From Eledone cirrhosa (Eukaryota), in the NCBI GenBank assembly GCA_964016885.1, contig OZ024740.1, forward strand, positions 386,322,001-386,386,000: a stretch of 64,000 nt of DNA. The letters are read 5' to 3'. Position numbers and translations under genes: made by a program. Below, piece by piece: positions 43,789 to 57,517 of the stretch. Positions within the stretch are counted from its first letter, which is position 1. Each line of letters opens with the position of its first letter. Below the pieces are notes generated by a model. It ran no database searches, was not told the origin of the DNA, and saw nothing but the letters and a program-made list of their open reading frames with translations.

Positions 43789-44925
43789 GATTTCTATTTA
43801 TTGCCACTAGGGCGCAAAAGAAGGGGACAAATACAAGGGGGGAGTTTACACAAAAAGGCGAGTAAAGAAAACAAATAACAAATATAAAATTAACAATAAA
43901 GTCCTCAATAGGGAGGGGGCGTTTGGGGGGTCGCACCCCCCCCCCCCAAAAAAAAGTGTATAACCCCTTCTCCTCAGGAGCACAGAGAGAGGCTGCTCCC
44001 TCCTACCTTCCTCTTTTCCACCTACAGGCTGATGTAGAGAGAAGGCCCATTCACACGGGCCATTCTCGCCACTTTCACCCACCTTTCATAAAAACAACTG
44101 GGGTTGAGCATCTCTCTCTCCATCTTGATCCTTCTTCCGAAATGATATCGTAAGAAACGGATCAGTTGTTGGCCAGAGAGAAAGGTGCCTGACCTGAGTC
44201 CTTTCAGACGCGTCCACCATACAACCTCTTTCACCATGGCTATTACGCACAGAAACACCGCCTCTCCTTCGTTTTTGAAGGGGGGAGGCGGCTTAATCGT
44301 TACAATGGCCTCGGTTATCAACCGTATCGGTCCCACCCGTGATAGCAGTCGTTCGACATAGCCCCACAGATCGGCTACGCCCGAACAGTGTACCAATGCG
44401 TGTGCAACGGTTTCCTCGTCGCACACGCATCTGGGACAGATCTTTTTGGCGGGGTCCCTACCCGGGCGCTCGTGTCTGTAGAGCTTTTCTCGAACGGGTA
44501 GAGCCCCTCGGTAGCACTGCCAGGCCAGGGACTTCTGGAAGTTGTCCATAGGTCCCGGGCTGAATGTCCTACCGAACAGGCTGGCCAGTTCGTCTTCCTC
44601 CATGTCTAGGGCTTCTCCGAGGGCGTCGTCGCACCTGCTGCGTACCAGCCCTCTATAGAATGTCGCGGTGGAGTCTCCACTGATAACCGGGTCCGTCTGC
44701 TAGAGGGCCGTGAGCGCCTGGGCACACTCAGTGTGCCAGGCGCCCAGTTTTCTCGGTCTTTGCTTGACCCAGGATTGTAGCTCGGTGAGTGAGACGAGTC
44801 TGGGAAAGGTTCGTCTCACAAACGGGGACCACACCGGTTGACTGGTGAGGAATACGTGGAGGTGCCGTAGCCTTAATGCGTGTTTACGCATCATTAGCCA
44901 CGGCATCCCCAGCCCTCCTTTCGAA
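43789..44925 (-). mobile_element. 5'-truncated L1/Tx1-clade LINE (ORF2 C-terminus, 3'UTR, (ATCT)n tail)
   Basis: GGLGMPWL and CPRC..EETVAHALVHC (zf-RVT-like). Same family as 49560-54140. TSD ggaatagata at 43779-43788 and 44926-44935. Confidence 0.92.
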
Positions 44926-46422
44926 GGAATAGATACATCGAGAGAAGTCTCAAGATTATTCATGCCAATTTTTTTTTCAAATAAAATTCTTCTTTCATGC
45001 AAACGTCCTCAAAGAACTGAGCAATCGTGTATGAAAAGAAAGACAAAGAGCGAGAACTGCAATCACCGTGGAATTATACTATTCTCAATTGTTGGGAAAA
45101 TACTCGTACGCGTTATTTTAAATAGAATCAACAAACAGCATTATACCCTGGATCCCAACGTGGCTTTCGCACTGGACGTAGTGCTATGTATGATTTTTAC
45201 ACGAAAGCAAGTTCGGGGAAAAGATCAAGAATATGATAAGGAACTCTAAATGTTCTTTAAAGATCTGAGAAAAGTGTTTGGTACTGTATCCAGGGAGGCA
45301 TTATGGACAGTTCCGTCATAAGTAGACATTTTGAATAAGATGAAAAACGTCATTATTTTCTTTCATTATAACATGATGGTGATAGTAATTTTTCTTATAG
45401 TCCATGTTATCATCCTTTCCATGTTTCAAATGAATCTAAACGTGGCTGCGTTCTTGCTCCAGTCTTATTTGTCCTCATTTTTTTTCTAACGACCAAGTGT
45501 GTATTTAATGATTTTGATGGTGTCCTGTTTTACTCCAACCAGACCCGTTTTGGTGCTCAAGTTGGAGTGGGGGGGGGGGGTTAGACCATTCCAGGTGGGC
45601 ATTTTAATTCGCAAGGAACGTATTTTAGTACGTTTCTTGAAAAATAAACTCAATTTTCTAAATCTGAAGGTGAACCCCACCTCCCGCCCCTGCTGCAGGC
45701 ATGGCTCCTACGAAGTTCTAATGCACAACAGTTTAATACAAATACTAAAACTAGATTTCAACTCAAACGAGAGTTTGTTTGTTTGTTTTGTTTTGTTTTG
45801 TTTTTGTTTTTTGCAAATCATTGTGCACTTGTTACTCATTCATTGGAAGAGATGCAGGATCTAATAAATAGATTATCTAAGACATGTAATGCTTTTGGTC
45901 TTGCCATTATCATCACGAACAAACTCAATTTGTTCTTCAGCTCAGAAGAAATACATCAGAGTCGAGTTCTATAATAAAAATCGATGATAACCCAATAAAG
46001 ACAATCATTCTATTTTTGCTATCTTGGCTCTACGGTAACATTAAATGCCAAAATTGATAGCGAAATTGCTCAGTGTATTGGAAAAGCCAGCACTTATTTT
46101 GAAAAATTATCTCAACGCCTCCAGAAAAATCGTGATGTTTCACGTAGGACGAAAATCCAGGTTTATCGTGCTGTAGTTAACCCAACATCAACGATAGCGT
46201 TGAAAAACTTGACATAAGTCGCATTGAAAAATTCTAGTTCCGTACACAAATGCACTGTGTAGAGCACGTCATTTGTATGAAAGGTATTGGAATTCCTTTA
46301 TACTTCTCTACTGGCAATTTTAAAATATCCCCGTTTATCAACGTTTTCCCACTTCTATCCTTTGTTAGTGAGCTGTTCACGACAGAAGAGAGCCCATCCT
46401 ACAAACAGACACATCCTACAAA

Positions 46423-48335: not shown

Positions 48336-48383
<48 letters not shown>

Positions 48384-48390
48384 TATACAT

Positions 48391-48690
48391 ATATGAATGT
48401 GTATTTTGCAATACATTGTATGCTTAATTAAAAGCATTTCGAAGACCTTACGCTATTGTTTTAGAGTAGTGACAATCTCACTTACTTCAATTTTCAGCAA
48501 ACAGGGGAGATAAAGCTGACAGAGCTCTGTTTCGCACTTTGTGGTGCTTATCAAAGCTAACTACTCCGCCTGTTTGCTGAAAATTATGAATGTTTGATTC
48601 TTATAGAATTCCAGTAATAACCAGGAACTGATTATACAGAGCGGTTGCCGGTCAAGCAGAAATTAAAAATTAGAATTGGTGTTCAGAGCA
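48391..48690 (-). mobile_element. ~300-bp HHR-containing retrozyme/pLTR-like unit between (TA)n tracts
   Basis: Inverted homolog of 55016-55390. Confidence 0.8.
48489..48585 (-). ncRNA. Type I hammerhead, U3:A8 core
   Basis: agcu-UUGAUAA-gcac cacaaa gugc-GAAA-cag agcu cug-UC-agcu, with a long bulged stem I (cagcaaacagg/ccuguuugcug). Confidence 0.85.
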
Positions 48691-48796
48691 CATAATATAT
48701 ATATATATTGAAATACCAATGATCGTTGGCAAATCACTGATGAGGGACTCATTTTATAACATGTAATCCATGTGCAACCATGCAGTATTCTTCTCC

Positions 48797-48872
<76 letters not shown>

Positions 48873-49007
48873 GAAAGTGAGGTTTTTTTACAAAATGAAA
48901 AATAACCGACGTGTCCTACACGAGTGAAAGTATAAAGAAAAAAAAGCTGAAATCGAAAATGCAACTGGAGTCTTATTTTAAAAAATATATATATATTTAT
49001 TTGGTTC

Positions 49008-49043
49008 CTTTACCGGTTTCGCATTTCTTCTGCTTTTCAAAAG
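49008..49043 (-). ncRNA. Minimal hammerhead, UUGAAAA core (left arm)
   Basis: Exact mirror of 49121-49156. Confidence 0.65.
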
Positions 49044-49120
49044 TAGAGTTGAGATGGAGGGTCTGTGGTTTTTCTCGCATCAGATGTGAGAAAAACCACA
49101 GACCCTCCATCTCAACTCTA

Positions 49121-49156
49121 CTTTTGAAAAGCAGAAGAAATGCGAAACCGGTAAAG
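49121..49156 (+). ncRNA. Minimal hammerhead, UUGAAAA core (right arm)
   Basis: cuu-UUGAAAA-gca gaagaaa ugc-GAAA-CCGG-UA-aag. Confidence 0.65.
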
Positions 49157-49220
49157 GAACCAAATAAATATATATATATTTTTTTAAACAAGACTCCAGT
49201 TGCATTTTCGAATTCGTCTT

Positions 49221-49559: not shown

Positions 49560-52500
49560 TTATCACACAATGTCTCAAAAGGAATCTCTTTGAGAATTAT
49601 GTTAAGGGTACACATATCTATGGAATAGTCAACCACTGGCACTTTAATTTCATGAGCAGGCTGTCCACTGGCACACTCATCGTTAGAACAAACGGAGGTC
49701 CTTAATACAACATAGTCTTGGGTTGCCCAACGTTTTATGTATGAGATTTGGTAAACGAAAACTGCGTAGAAGCTCTTCGTATATACTTAAATATCTATCC
49801 CCAACGTGTGCCTCTGGATGGAATTTCGCACATAAACATTTCTGTTGAGAGTAGGCGGCCTTCATGTTACCACTGTTTAAGCAGTGGTCACCTGAAGGCT
49901 TACTGTCCTCAGTTAACTAAAAAAAAAAAGAGGCACTACTGCCAACACCCAAAACAACAACACAACCACCACCACCACCACCACCACCACCACCACCACA
50001 ACAACAACAACAACAACACGCAAACACAACCAGAACAAGAACAACAAACCAACCTGCAAGCACAGTCCCACCCAACCCCACTCCATCTAAAACCACTGCA
50101 AAAACACCCACAAACACAACAGCTCCCCAAAACATACCCCTTCCAAATAACACAGACACCACAACGGACGAGGGCCCCATATCATCACCAAGTGACGATG
50201 AGGGAGAGCCTTTCCGTTCGAAAAGAAAGAAGAAAAGACACCACAAGAACAAAAAAACAACAAACATCACTACAAACATACAACCACCAACACAAACAAC
50301 ACAAACATTACAAACAAAAACCCCCCGTCCCGAAAACAAAACCACGACAACACTCCAAACACAAACACCTACAACAAAACGAAAGCTCCCACAAGAACAA
50401 CAGACAAAAACCACCGCAACACAACAAGAACATTACACATACATAAACAGTAGAAACAAAACTTTAATGGAGGTCATCTCCAACGACCCTTCGGTTTTCA
50501 CCGAAGGGAAAACTTTTTCGAACTGTGTAGACAAACCTAATTTAAAGATGATTAGGGTCCCTACGGACACCTATAGGTCTTTAAAGGAAAACTTTCCTAA
50601 GGACGTAGGTAATCTTTGGGTTAAACCCATTAACCGCGTCCTTTTAAAAAGTTTCCCCACCCTCACCCCAGACACACCCACCCCAGACACCCCCAACCCA
50701 CCCCGCCGGAAACCACCATACACCCAGACATCTCCTCTAACACCCCCATGGAAAGCGTGCGGCCTGATCCCCGGGAGACGAAGAGGTGAGTGTTTTCTTC
50801 TCCTCTTTTAACTTTTCAGAACCAACATGGCCAATATAAGAGTTGGGTGTGTGAATGTACGCGGCCTGGGGATGCCTGGAAACAGGGCAAACTCTTAAAC
50901 GACCTCAGGTCGCACAGTATGGATGTAGTAGCCATTTGCGAGTCCAGGATCCACAGCGAGCGACAGCTGGCCCCCATCTTCGATGACTTTGAGATCTACG
51001 CATCTCTCTGTCAGCCGGGGGGTGGGGGCGGAGTTGCCGTTTTGCTGCGGAAACACCTGGACCTCGTAACACAGATGGTACATTTGGACACGGAGGGTCG
51101 ACTGGTGGTCTGAGACGTTGACGGTAGTGAAGGTGGAGCCTTCAGGCTGGTGGCCGCATATACCCCATCCGGGACACCACGGCTAGACTTCTTCAAACGT
51201 CTAGAGACTTTTCTGGGAACGTGTCGCTCCTTGCTTTTAGTGGGGGACTGGAATGGATCCTAGATGCACGTTGGGACTATGTGGGAGCATGTCGCGATAA
51301 AGGGGGGTGTAACATCCTCAAACAGTTAATCGGCCGATTTGACCTGGCCGATAGATATCGACTAGATTTTCCGACTGTGCCACTGTGGACGTGGACTAAT
51401 CTTAGCGGAACATCTAGATCGTACCTAGATAGGGTTCTAGTTAGAAATAAGGATAGGGACATGTTAAGCTGTCCACAAATGTTCATGGTTGCCTATTCAG
51501 ATCATAAACTAGTGACCTGCATGGTCAACCCTTGATAGAACCCATAGACAAGGACCCGGCTACTGGAAGCTGAACTTGTCGTTACCGACATGCAAAGCAT
51601 ACAGTAGACGGATTAGCACTTTAGTTAAACAGCACTTGACAGGGGCCATTGTCAACAACAGATGGTGGTACTCTCTCAAGAGGGCAGTTAGATTAGACTC
51701 GTTAGTTTTTAGTAAAGAATTAGCGTTAGATAGAAATAGAACCGAGAAAGAACTGGTAGATAAAGTAGAAGAGGCAATTAAAAGTGGGAACGTAGCCAGC
51801 GTGCTAGCAACGAGAACGGCCCTGGACCAGTTCTTTGACGCAAAGCATGAGGGCTGCGTTGTCAGAAGCAAAATACGTGCTCTGGGAAACGAGGGAGCCA
51901 AAGCTGTTAGCTGGGCCCGGGTGACGGAGGCAAAAAGTGGCAACAAGTCCAAGATTCGGTCTTTGAAGGACAAAAACGGACGCGTGATACGTGAGCCTAA
52001 GCAGATGTGTGCGGCCTTTCAGCGTCACTTTGCTCAGCTGTTCGGGCAGGGCGGCGCGTCGGGAGGGGCTATGGATTTCGGTCCATACCTCGACGGCCTA
52101 CCGCGACTCTCGGACAGCGAGGTAAAGTTTTGCGAAAAGCCGATTTCAGCCGCTGAGATAGAGGACGCGCGGAGCCAATGCGGCAAACGCAAATATCCAG
52201 GTTTCGACGGTCTACCCTACGAATTTTACGTAGCAATACCGGACTTATTCTCCGGTCTCCTGCAACTGGCAACAGAACGGGAGAATTCCCAGTTCTGTGA
52301 CCGGGGGCGTAGTCACACTAGTCAGGAAGGACGAGAATAAGGGGGATGACATAGGCAACTTCCGGCCCATAACTCTGCTAAACCAAGAGTTACAGATTTT
52401 GGCCAAGGTATTGGCAAAGAGGCTGGCGCTTGTCGTCGAGAACCTGGTGGGAGAAGCGCAGACATGCGTAATCCCGACCAGGTCCATTCACGACAACCTC

Positions 52501-54140
52501 CATCTCATGCGATATATAATAGAGAGGGTGGAGCCCTGATCAACTTGGATCAGTCTAAGGCTTTCGATAGGGTTGACCATCGTTACCTGGATGCGGTGCT
52601 CGAGGCGGCAGGCTTCGGACCCGTGTTCAGGGGCTGGATTGCTGCAATGCATAACAGCAACATCTGCTCAAGGGTTAAGGTGAACGGCTACATCTCGGAG
52701 CCGTTCCATATCACGCGATCAATTCGACAGGGATGCCCTCTCTCCTCCCTTCTGTACGTATTGACTCTCGAGCCACTACTGCGGAAGTTGGAGCTATTGC
52801 AGGGCATCCCTCTGGAACCGGGACTGCGGAAAGCGGCGTCGGCCTACGCCGACGACGTGACAGTAATGGTGTCGAGCGCCTCGCAAATAGAGGAAGTCGG
52901 CACCTTACTGAAGGAATACGAAAGGTTCACAGGAGCGAAGCTGAACCGGGACAAGTCCATCGGTTTGCAACTTGGATCGTGGAGAGGCAAACCGATGCCT
53001 TCCGATGGCGTCGTCGGACGCTGGACGGAAGGACCAGTAAAGCTCCTTGGGGTCTGGTTTGGTCCGGACCTCCAGGTGGAGAAGAACTGGAACGAGGCGT
53101 CGGCCAAGGTGTTTGCACTCACCCAGAAGTGGGCCGAGTGCAAACTATCCTTGAAAGGTCGAGCGGAGGTGGCGAACACTTTTATAGCGTCCGCCATCTA
53201 CTACCGCTTGACCGTCGTGCCTTGTCCAGCCAAAACGCTCACCAAAATGGAGCGCGTGCTCTTCCAATTCCTTTGGAAGAGGCGGGCTCCTTTGGTGAGA
53301 AGATCCATCTGCTGCCAACACCCTTCTAACGGAGGGCTGGGGATGCCGTGGTTGACGATGCGTAAACACGCGCTCAGGCTGCGGCATCTCTACGCATTCC
53401 TCACCGGACAACTGGTGTGGGCCCCGTTCGTGAGGCGAGCCTTCCCACGACTCGTCTCGCTGACCGAGCTCCAGTCCTAGGTCAAGCAAAGACCGAGGAA
53501 AATGGGCGACTAGCACATCGAATGTGCTCAGGCGCTCACAGCCCTCTGGCAGGCGGACCCGGCGATCAGTGGAGACTCAACTTCGTCATTCTATAGAGGG
53601 TTGATCCGCAGCAAGTGTGACGACGTGCTCGGTGAAACTGGGCGTAGAGGAAGACGAACTGGCCAGTCTGTTCGGTAGGACCTTCCGCCCGGGACCGATG
53701 GACAACTTCCAAAAGTCCCTGGCCTGGCAGTGCTACCGAGGAGCTCTACCAGTTCGAGACAAGCTCTACAGACATGGGCAGAATCAGGATGGAGAGAGAG
53801 GTGCTGTACCCCAGCAAGTTTTATGAAATGTGGGTGTAAGTGGCGAGAATGGCCCGAGCGAATGGGCCTTCTCTCTATATCAGCCTGTAGGTTGAGGAAA
53901 AAGAGGAGGAGAGGAGAAGAGTACAAACTCTTCGTACTCCTGGAGATGAGGGTTGCACATTTTTGGGGGGGGTATGTGTTACCCATATGAAATGTCTCCC
54001 CCTAATTGGGGAAAATCAACTAATTTTTAAATTACATTTGTGATAATATTTTACACGTTTTTATTGTATGTAAACTTCTCCCTTTGTATTTGTCCCCTTC
54101 TTTTGTGCCCCTGTGGCTAATAAAGAAACACATCTATCTA
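49560..54140 (+). mobile_element. Near full-length L1/Tx1-clade LINE
   Basis: ORF1 remnant with CCHC knuckle CYHCLSSGHLKAYC, then ORF2. The 3'UTR has AATAAA and an atct tail. The 5' end is uncertain. Confidence 0.92.
50827..53890 (+). pseudogene. Disrupted ORF2 (APE endonuclease plus reverse transcriptase)
   Basis: MANIRVGCVNVRGL, GDWN, YLDR, SDH, GYWKLN, NFRPITLLN, LDQSKAFDRV, RQGCPLS and AYADD. Several stops and frameshifts; the zinc finger is deleted at ~53780 relative to the 44-kb copy. Confidence 0.92.
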
Positions 54141-54892: not shown

Positions 54893-55016
54893 TAGAAGGA
54901 GCAACGTGAAATAAAGTGTCTTGCTCAAGGACATAACGCATCACCTGGTCGAGGAATCGAACTCACAACCTTACGATTGCGAATCCAATTCTCTAACCAC
55001 TCAGCCACACGCCTTC
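54893..55016 (-). mobile_element. SINE family B-related tRNA head
   Basis: Reverse complement reads ggcgtgtggctgagtggttagag...gagttcgattcc...cttgagcaagacactttatttc. Confidence 0.8.
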
Positions 55017-55384
55017 ACTATATATATACATTCATATATATATAGCTATTTCAGAGCACCAATTCTAATTTTCAATTTCTGCTTGACCGGCAACCGCTCT
55101 GTATAATCAGCTCCTGATTATTTACTAGAATTCTATAAGAACCAAACATCCATGAATCCAGCAAACAGGAGGAGTAGTTGGCTTTGATAAGCATCAATAA
55201 ATGCGAAACAAGGCCTTGTCAGCTTTATCTCCCCTGTTTGCTGAAAATTACAGTAAGTGTGGCTGTCACTACTCTAAAACAATAGCATAAGGTCTTCGAA
55301 ATGCTTTTAATTAAGCATACAGTGTATTGCAAAATACACTATATATACATTCATATATATATAGCTATTTCAGAGCACCAATTC

Positions 55385-55390
<6 letters not shown>
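55016..55390 (+). mobile_element. Retrozyme-like unit with 319-bp period and terminal redundancy
   Basis: tacattcatata..gctatttcagagcaccaattctaatttt is repeated (gctatt at 55045 and 55364); central HHR. Confidence 0.8.
55159..55243 (+). ncRNA. Type I hammerhead, U3:A8 core
   Basis: ggcu-UUGAUAA-gcau caauaa augc-GAAA-caa ggcc uug-UC-agcu. Predicted cleavage after 55220. Extended stem I. Confidence 0.88.
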
Positions 55391-55440
<50 letters not shown>

Positions 55441-56807: not shown

Positions 56808-56861
56808 TATATATATATATACGATATTAATAAATGGAAACTATATTTATAAAACCATATT

Positions 56862-56926
56862 TATTTCATTATACATATTTCAGGGATACCACATTAAATT
56901 ATGGTATGCCTTCATCAGACAAAATA
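56862..56926 (-). ncRNA. Type I hammerhead (left arm)
   Basis: Mirror of 57080-57144. Confidence 0.8.
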
Positions 56927-57079
56927 CAATATATAACAGTTTTACAAATAGGTTTGACGTACCTTTTAAAATACAACCATTTCTTTTGGAGGCTGTGGGC
57001 ACTATCCAGACAGCCTCCAAAAGTAATGGTTGTATTTTAAAGGGTACGTCAAACCTATTTGTAAAACTGTTATATATTG

Positions 57080-57144
57080 TATTTTGTCTGATGAAGGCAT
57101 ACCATAATTTAATGTGGTATCCCTGAAATATGTATAATGAAATA
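57080..57144 (+). ncRNA. Type I hammerhead with minimal stem III (right arm)
   Basis: uauuuugu-CUGAUGA-aggcauaccaua auuuaa ugugguaucccu-GAAA-U-AUGU-AUA-augaaaua. Predicted cleavage after 57136. Confidence 0.82.
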
Positions 57145-57384
57145 AATATGGTTTTATAAATATAGTTTCCATTTATTAATATCGTATATCTACTCCAAAA
57201 ATTTGTCGAGTGCTTTATATCAGTTATAAAAATATTTACTTGTTGGGTTATTTATTTATTTTTTTTACAAAACGAAAAATAACCGAGGTGTCCTACACGA
57301 GTGAAAGTATAAAGAAAAAGAGATGAAATCGAAAATGCAACTGGAGTCTTATTTTAAAAAAAATATATATATATTTATTTGGTT

Positions 57385-57419
57385 CCTTTACCGGTTTCGC
57401 AGTTCTGCTTTTCAAAAGG
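57385..57419 (-). ncRNA. Minimal hammerhead, UUGAAAA core, within the element at 57260-57455
   Basis: ccuu-UUGAAAA-gca gaac ugc-GAAA-CCGG-UA-aagg. Confidence 0.72.
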
Positions 57420-57450
57420 TGAGTTGAGATGGAGGGTCTGTGGTTTTTCT

Positions 57451-57517
<67 letters not shown>

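Follow-up and report, generated by a model that had tools for sequence, protein, structure and literature searches.

A non-coding retrozyme of Eledone cirrhosa with predicted U3:A8 hammerhead ribozymes and Penelope-type insertion ends

Results

Two predicted hammerheads in the window

The window, a stretch of 64,000 nucleotides of the Eledone cirrhosa genome, contains two copies of a non-coding repeat of about 320 bp, each with a predicted type I hammerhead ribozyme in which a compensatory U3:A8 pair occupies the place of C3:G8. Our main reading, which we hold with a probability of roughly 0.7, is that these hammerheads belong to a retrozyme whose copies were likely inserted in (TA)n tracts through the action of a reverse transcriptase-endonuclease of Penelope-like type. 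The hammerheads had been proposed by a first-pass annotation made from the letters of the window; the retrozyme context and the Penelope-type ends are additions of the present work.

Copy A is located on the forward strand, with stems extending from 55159 to 55243, and copy B on the reverse strand, from 48495 to 48579. In copy A, a long bulged stem I (distal part 55159-55169/55233-55243; middle part 55171-55174/55229-55232; proximal part 55180-55183/55221-55224) encloses the core U3 U4 G5 A6 U7 A8 A9 (55184-55190; U3 at 55184, A8 at 55189), a 4-bp stem II capped by a 6-nt loop 2 (55191-55204), GAAA, and stem III with C17 (55208-55220), which ends in the triplet GUC (55218-55220) with the predicted cut after 55220. 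The same order (UUGAUAA, stem II, GAAA, stem III, GUC) was read in copy B (U3 at 48554, A8 at 48549, C17 at 48518, GUC at 48520-48518), which belongs to subfamily B and deviates by a single letter of loop 2 from the majority of that subfamily; copy A belongs to subfamily A. All 12 nt of stem III are self-complementary in both copies (55208-55219 in copy A). The first-pass annotation had placed copy A correctly and copy B at 48489, which is off by 6 nt, and we read both copies as it did regarding the replacement of CUGAUGA by UUGAUAA, the GUC site, the long bulged stem I, and the exchanges in stem II (GCAU/AUGC in A versus GCAC/GUGC in B) and stem III (CAA/UUG versus CAG/CUG). Those helix differences are real, but they turned out to be subfamily markers and not events of individual copies. 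Similarly, the palindromic loop III described for A (GGCC) and B (AGCU) extends to subfamily D but not to the whole family, loop III being AGAU in subfamily C and a 3-nt loop in E1 and E2.

The core letters of A and B fully match the hammerhead except for the change of C3/G8 to U3/A8, a published active variant; GUC is an NUH cleavage triplet, and three helices with an open helix I were found in the 11 copies chosen for comparison. Fold z-scores were -5.8 for copy A and -6.2 for copy B, none of 200 shuffles being equally stable; since the opposite strands also reached -4.9, this stability signal comes mostly from the long distal stem. Search of the window against Rfam gave no match at gathering level: Rfam HH9 aligned to copies A and B at 21.6 and 23.1 bits (gathering score 52), covering the 6-nt loop 2 and an internal loop in stem I, the candidate partners of a loop 1-loop 2 tertiary contact. 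Rfam miRNA matches in the window were rejected, as they corresponded to TA repeats and inverted repeats, and the interpretation of A and B as a single inverted insertion was also rejected, as they belong to different subfamilies. Judged by their sequences, copies A and B would thus work as type I hammerheads with a U3:A8 core, and self-cleavage is predicted for them.

Other repeats are found nearby: a frameshifted non-LTR retrotransposon with endonuclease- and RT-like frames between the two copies (49745-53780, forward strand), an inverted fragment of the same retrotransposon family (44017-44927, reverse strand), an almost perfect inverted repeat (183 nt, spacer of 13 nt; 56814-57192), perhaps a foldback element or a MITE, and a tRNA-like SINE copy (54898-55019) directly adjoining insertion A on its 5' side. 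The SINEs of the window presumably resemble octopus SINEs.

The repeat family

Insertion A (55021-55391, forward strand) comprises a unit of 319 nt and a further 52 nt that belong to the next one (terminal redundancy), and ends at the "tail" site described below, by a (TA)n tract; insertion B (48370-48708, reverse strand; locus L031) has its end within (TA)n, at the short site. Both align to each other across about 320 nt. In the 3.0-Gb genome, the unit, with a period of 316-321, is both dispersed over many contigs and arranged in tandem, and one 10-kb array contains 28 hammerheads spaced 320-321 nt. A loose U3:A8 pattern gave at least 4,415 matches genome-wide, versus 19 with the reversed control. 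GC content of the unit is 34-35%, and neither copy A nor copy B is crossed by an ORF of at least 110 aa. The repeat consists therefore of a non-coding tandem unit within the 150-450 bp range, with one type I hammerhead per unit and GC below 50%, and by these sequence criteria it is a non-LTR retrozyme; it lacks the RT and GIY-YIG ORF of an autonomous Penelope-like element (PLE).

Near-full copies were sorted into eight groups, which accommodated 195 of the 196. Stem II reads GUAC/GUAC, GCAC/GUGC, GCAU/AUGC, or GCUU/AAGC depending on the subfamily, pair 15.4-16.4 is G-C, A-U, or U-A, and pair 2.1-1.1 is U-A or C-G. Subfamily F (L208, L123) carries U3:A8, a shorter and fully palindromic stem III, and further compensation in proximal stem I.

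The 3:8 pair in retrozymes and in Penelope-like families

The first-pass annotation had interpreted U3:A8 as a compensatory version of the 3:8 pair, and this was borne out by the existence of a homologous C3:G8 sister, subfamily C, whose core is CUGA(G/A)GA and whose homology extends over the whole unit (up to 82% with A and 88% with B). Matched patterns retrieved 1,493 U3:A8, 83 C3:G8, 9 U3:G8, and 7 C3:A8 cores, the C3:A8 pattern carrying one extra fixed base relative to the others, so that a Watson-Crick 3:8 pair was present in 1,576 of 1,592. The 16 mismatched cores were spread over subfamilies, and none was the founder of one. As had been anticipated, a CUGANGA search misses U3:A8; since the C3:G8 sister is overlooked by Rfam as well (14.6 versus 34 bits), the U3:A8 core is not the sole reason for being missed. 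The core variant is not new: natural U3/A8 covariation was reported in 2011 (PMC3088659), where activity in vitro is stated from another paper, and in 2014 a U3-A8 descriptor found about 1,300 motifs in Penelope elements of Schistosoma (PMC4209133).

Family G is a distant homologue with 14,683 C3:G8 cores and 24 lacking G8. Canonical relatives are consequently more numerous than the U3:A8 clade, and the idea that U3:A8 dominates the retrozymes of this genome was rejected. Family G is young, with a unit of 310-312 bp, C3:G8, a U10.1-U11.1 mismatch, and a minimal stem III (L234-L281), and it forms long inverted tandem arrays (e.g., G000 C1:111531606-111534220). Further small hammerhead families with a canonical core occur at L113-L115, L245, L216, and L228. 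For the direction of the 3:8 switch, trees were computed from 58 rows picked among 196 copies and 72 units; family G served as outgroup, and columns 3 and 8 were excluded. In the best tree, the C3:G8 subfamily is nested within U3:A8, which requires two changes; a single U3:A8 clade was not rejected (p-AU 0.47), and copy divergence (0.074 for C, 0.077 for A, 0.072 for B) gives no order.

The U3:A8 core is also found in two PLE families of this genome. In P1, an intact family with 13,821 such cores, each of the two pseudo-LTRs contains a minimal hammerhead with U3:A8, and full copies have intact ORFs of 409 and 775 aa. Three P1 hammerheads, all of minimal type with a UA cleavage site and a CCGG loop III, are located in the window: two in an inverted pair of pseudo-LTR fragments (48869-49218; cores near 49011-49040 on the reverse and 49124-49153 on the forward strand), one arm with a tail and the other without it, and one in a third pseudo-LTR fragment (57259-57455, reverse strand; U3 at 57415). 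For the second family, P2, 1,417 matches were obtained, with U3:A8 in 99 of the first 100 listed. No sequence homology was detected between P1 or P2 and the retrozyme. In the P2 cores (L309, L330; G000 C1:42354105, C4:351545374 region), the basal position of stem II is a U-U mismatch, and stem II of P2 resembles that of retrozyme subfamily A', which may reflect either shared ancestry or convergence. A further young PLE family, P0, combines a minimal hammerhead of C3:G8 type with a tail of 55 nt (L058:621-1467).

Predicted folds and the nature of the template

Folding was evaluated by nearest-neighbour predictions, with tertiary contacts outside the model. In the 11 copies used for constrained comparison (families F and G were folded without constraint), the lowest-energy monomer fold is predicted to differ from the active junction in every case, with a gap of 0.5-7.0 kcal/mol, and in 10 of them the 5' strand of stem III is predicted to pair with U3-U4-G5 (or the equivalent with C3). 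Copies A and B of the window likewise have predicted minimum-energy folds other than the active three-way junction. Stem III itself would be about neutral as a hairpin (-1.8 to +1.2) and stable as a self-duplex (-10 to -20), in agreement with reports that dimerization assists cleavage in type I motifs of animals (PMC4209133; PMC6155905). When folded as circles, natural monomers lie far below shuffled sequences, for instance at -79.5 versus -53.2 +/- 3.8 kcal/mol (25 shuffles each).

Sequence continued through the cleavage site in 153 of 193 cases, a count inflated by the choice of loci with an intact core. Since many copies read through this site, the template would be circular or else a multimer that was left uncleaved. 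The strongest alternative to our reading keeps ribozyme and Penelope mobilization but takes as template an uncleaved linear multimer transcribed from arrays, in which case cleavage might serve another step, such as releasing the RNA from host transcripts or limiting its amount. Long arrays do exist, and the main substrate of a lizard PLE was uncleaved RNA, its insertion in vitro proceeding without need for ribozyme cleavage (Frangieh 2024, PMC11167929). Moreover, only 12 of 226 5' ends were within 5 nt of the cleavage site, about 8 being expected; they are not clearly concentrated there, which is compatible with a circle too. Against a linear template, other animal retrozymes accumulate as circles (PMC7229834), and the circular folds predicted for natural monomers are well below those of shuffles. 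We consider the multimer a possible template, though a less probable one than the circle.

Selection on the fold

The proposal that the fold was kept under selection during propagation of the repeat is supported by the comparison of subfamilies. The nine catalytic positions U4, G5, A6, A9, G12, A13, A14, A15.1, and U16.1 are identical across all eight subfamilies, and 14 of the 22 loop and bulge columns vary. In 11 representative copies, 272 of 272 cells were paired and 6 of 25 pairs were altered on both sides, slid controls giving 32-48% paired; pairs 55168, 55169, and 55180 were excluded because of an unstable alignment register. Pairing was kept in 15 of 16 subfamily-level changes, counted manually, and in 95 of 337 private changes (Fisher p 1.5e-7), that is, changes shared by a subfamily preserve pairs and private ones mostly break them. 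The observed value of pairs altered on both sides was matched by 26 of 500 shuffles, in a control that ignores relatedness; subfamilies in these tests are interrelated, and some loci were picked by core-fixing patterns. The invariant unpaired core, together with changes that are one-sided G-U wobbles, points to selection acting on RNA.

It is improbable that the compensatory changes are instead mutational, arising from template switching in DNA or cDNA hairpins that mends quasi-palindromes, with a weak or dispensable ribozyme. Such an origin would agree with the greater variability between subfamilies of paired columns (23 of 54) than of those outside (34 of 206), with the location of positions 3 and 8 within a possible 3-bp mini-hairpin (2.2-10.1, 2.1-9, 3-8) in subfamilies A-D and C, and with the predicted preference for the inactive fold. 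However, it would account poorly for unpaired catalytic letters that stay constant while most loop and bulge columns vary, and one-sided G-U wobbles are not expected from repair. Family G, in addition, retains core and geometry though its helices largely differ, and U3:A8 is present also in two unrelated PLE families.

Insertion ends of Penelope type

The 3' ends of the retrozyme (128 loci) fell at two sites in 194 of 224 cases, either within the TA tract of the unit or about 25-28 nt beyond it, thereby defining an optional tail of about 25-28 nt between two fixed insertion ends (55364-55391 in insertion A, forward strand). Just upstream of the short end there is an 8-bp hairpin (55321-55340, forward strand), a candidate recognition element for the reverse transcriptase. 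This hairpin is kept in family G with other arms and another loop, the tail is likewise conserved between A and G, and family G insertions end at the same two places. Retrozyme 3' ends mostly abut (TA)n and bear no poly(A); because they sit in these tracts, target-site duplications are unreadable. Out of 78 inverted pairs, 20 had an unclassed end, and exactly one arm carried the tail in 53 of the 58 that could be classed (p 1e-11). Two Penelope families of this genome obey the same rule (9/9 and 7/7 classed pairs). A tail hidden behind an expanded TA tract at the short end, which would make the rule an artefact, was found in none of 104 cases.

These features resemble those of PLE insertions, which have a 30-40-bp tail, usually at one end (Craig 2021), that has been linked to reverse transcription starting at two internal positions, with AT-rich targets (Frangieh 2024, PMC11167929): two 3' ends, an optional tail, an inverted truncated arm, and an AT-rich target were all observed in the retrozyme. 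Intact and near-identical RT-GIY-YIG ORFs are present in the genome. Neither the regions downstream of 54 GIY-YIG/PLE loci nor P0, P1, and P2 yielded a pseudo-LTR with homology to the unit; a hit at L307 was discarded, being a retrozyme-type copy beyond a TA tract. Two other lines were also discarded: co-location with PLEs, which is not clearly enriched (33 of 155 loci versus 9 of 60 random 3.3-kb pieces), and direct junctions between unit and PLE ORF at L139 and L159, which violate the one-tail rule. It is very unlikely that a LINE moves the repeat or that it spread at the DNA level, as a satellite: LINE fragments are frequent nearby, a homologous PLE terminus was not found among those searched, and unequal crossover could lengthen arrays, but poly(A) ends are absent, copies are dispersed over many contigs, and the pattern of two fixed ends, with a single tail in each inverted insertion, is like that of this genome's PLEs.

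Discussion

A life cycle can be proposed for the retrozyme on the basis of the reading given at the outset. Tandem copies would be transcribed, and the hammerhead would cut the multimers into unit-length RNA, probably assisted by pairing between the self-complementary stem III of neighbouring copies. Monomers would then be circularized by a host ligase, and in the circle an alternative helix, in which stem III pairs with the 5' strand of stem I and U3-U4-G5, would hold the ribozyme largely inactive. Finally, a Penelope protein would nick both strands of a TA tract, and cDNA synthesis would start at two internal sites of the RNA about 25 nt apart, one start per strand, passing the cleavage junction and generating partial tandems and inverted arms. 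New subfamilies would be founded only by templates that keep the fold, and this would explain why C3:G8 and U3:A8 were amplified and mismatched states were not.

A more tentative extension can be envisaged, which we regard as rather doubtful: the Penelope enzyme would capture a small, sequence-unrelated circular RNA through the conserved hairpin and tail, with two internal priming sites, and U3:A8 would be tuned to weaken cleavage of the monomer, the pairing of U3 into the off-state helix contributing to this, so that circles persist. If true, the tuned pair would explain the occurrence of U3:A8 in three unrelated families of one genome (about 19,600 motifs).

The homologous C3:G8/U3:A8 series, with its stepwise helix swaps, offers a natural system in which tolerance at the 3:8 pair can be tested in a full-length ribozyme. 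The insertion ends add evidence at the level of junctions to the question of which enzyme mobilizes animal retrozymes, for which dependence on PLEs has been proposed (Cervera and de la Pena 2020, PMC7229834). In this genome, about 19,600 motifs (4,415 + 13,821 + ~1,400) would escape surveys restricted to CUGANGA; the canonical motifs of family G number at least 14,683. Our literature search retrieved no description of this family or of a tail rule for retrozymes, although supplements or repeat databases may hold one.

The U3:A8 family adds a variant to the non-LTR retrozymes already described and represents neither a new core chemistry nor a new class of element. As in the animal non-LTR retrozymes of PMC7229834, a type I hammerhead occurs once per non-coding, low-GC unit of 150-450 bp, copies are both dispersed and in tandem, and PLEs are the proposed mover. 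It differs from them in having U3:A8 in most copies of the clade, a 4-bp and fully self-complementary stem III in A, B, and D, and a PLE tail and inversion rule documented here, the words "tail" and "inverted" being absent from the main text of that paper. At the level of motifs, Rfam Hammerhead_HH9 (RF02275) and Hammerhead_1 (RF00163) align over the core, stem II, and 6-nt loop 2, with scores far below gathering. The hammerheads of the Cercyon PLE of S. mansoni (PMC4209133) and the variants of PMC3088659 show the same core covariation and are PLE-linked; those motifs are minimal and heterogeneous, whereas those of the retrozyme are full-size, with a long bulged stem I, and belong to a non-coding repeat with a C3:G8 sister. 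With PLEs (Frangieh 2024, PMC11167929; Craig 2021) the retrozyme shares AT-rich or (TA)n targets, partial tandems, an inverted 5'-truncated arm, an optional tail at one end, and a hammerhead near the terminus, but it has no ORF, and none of the PLE termini compared with it showed detectable sequence homology. Retrozymes of vertebrates have likewise been argued to be non-autonomous dependants of PLEs (Li, Clavereau, Pollet 2026, preprint 10.64898/2026.07.22.740005); the case made there relies on co-occurrence and pLTR homology, with no "tail" in its text, whereas in E. cirrhosa, where pLTR homology was not found, it is the anatomy of the insertion ends that links the retrozyme to Penelope-like enzymes.
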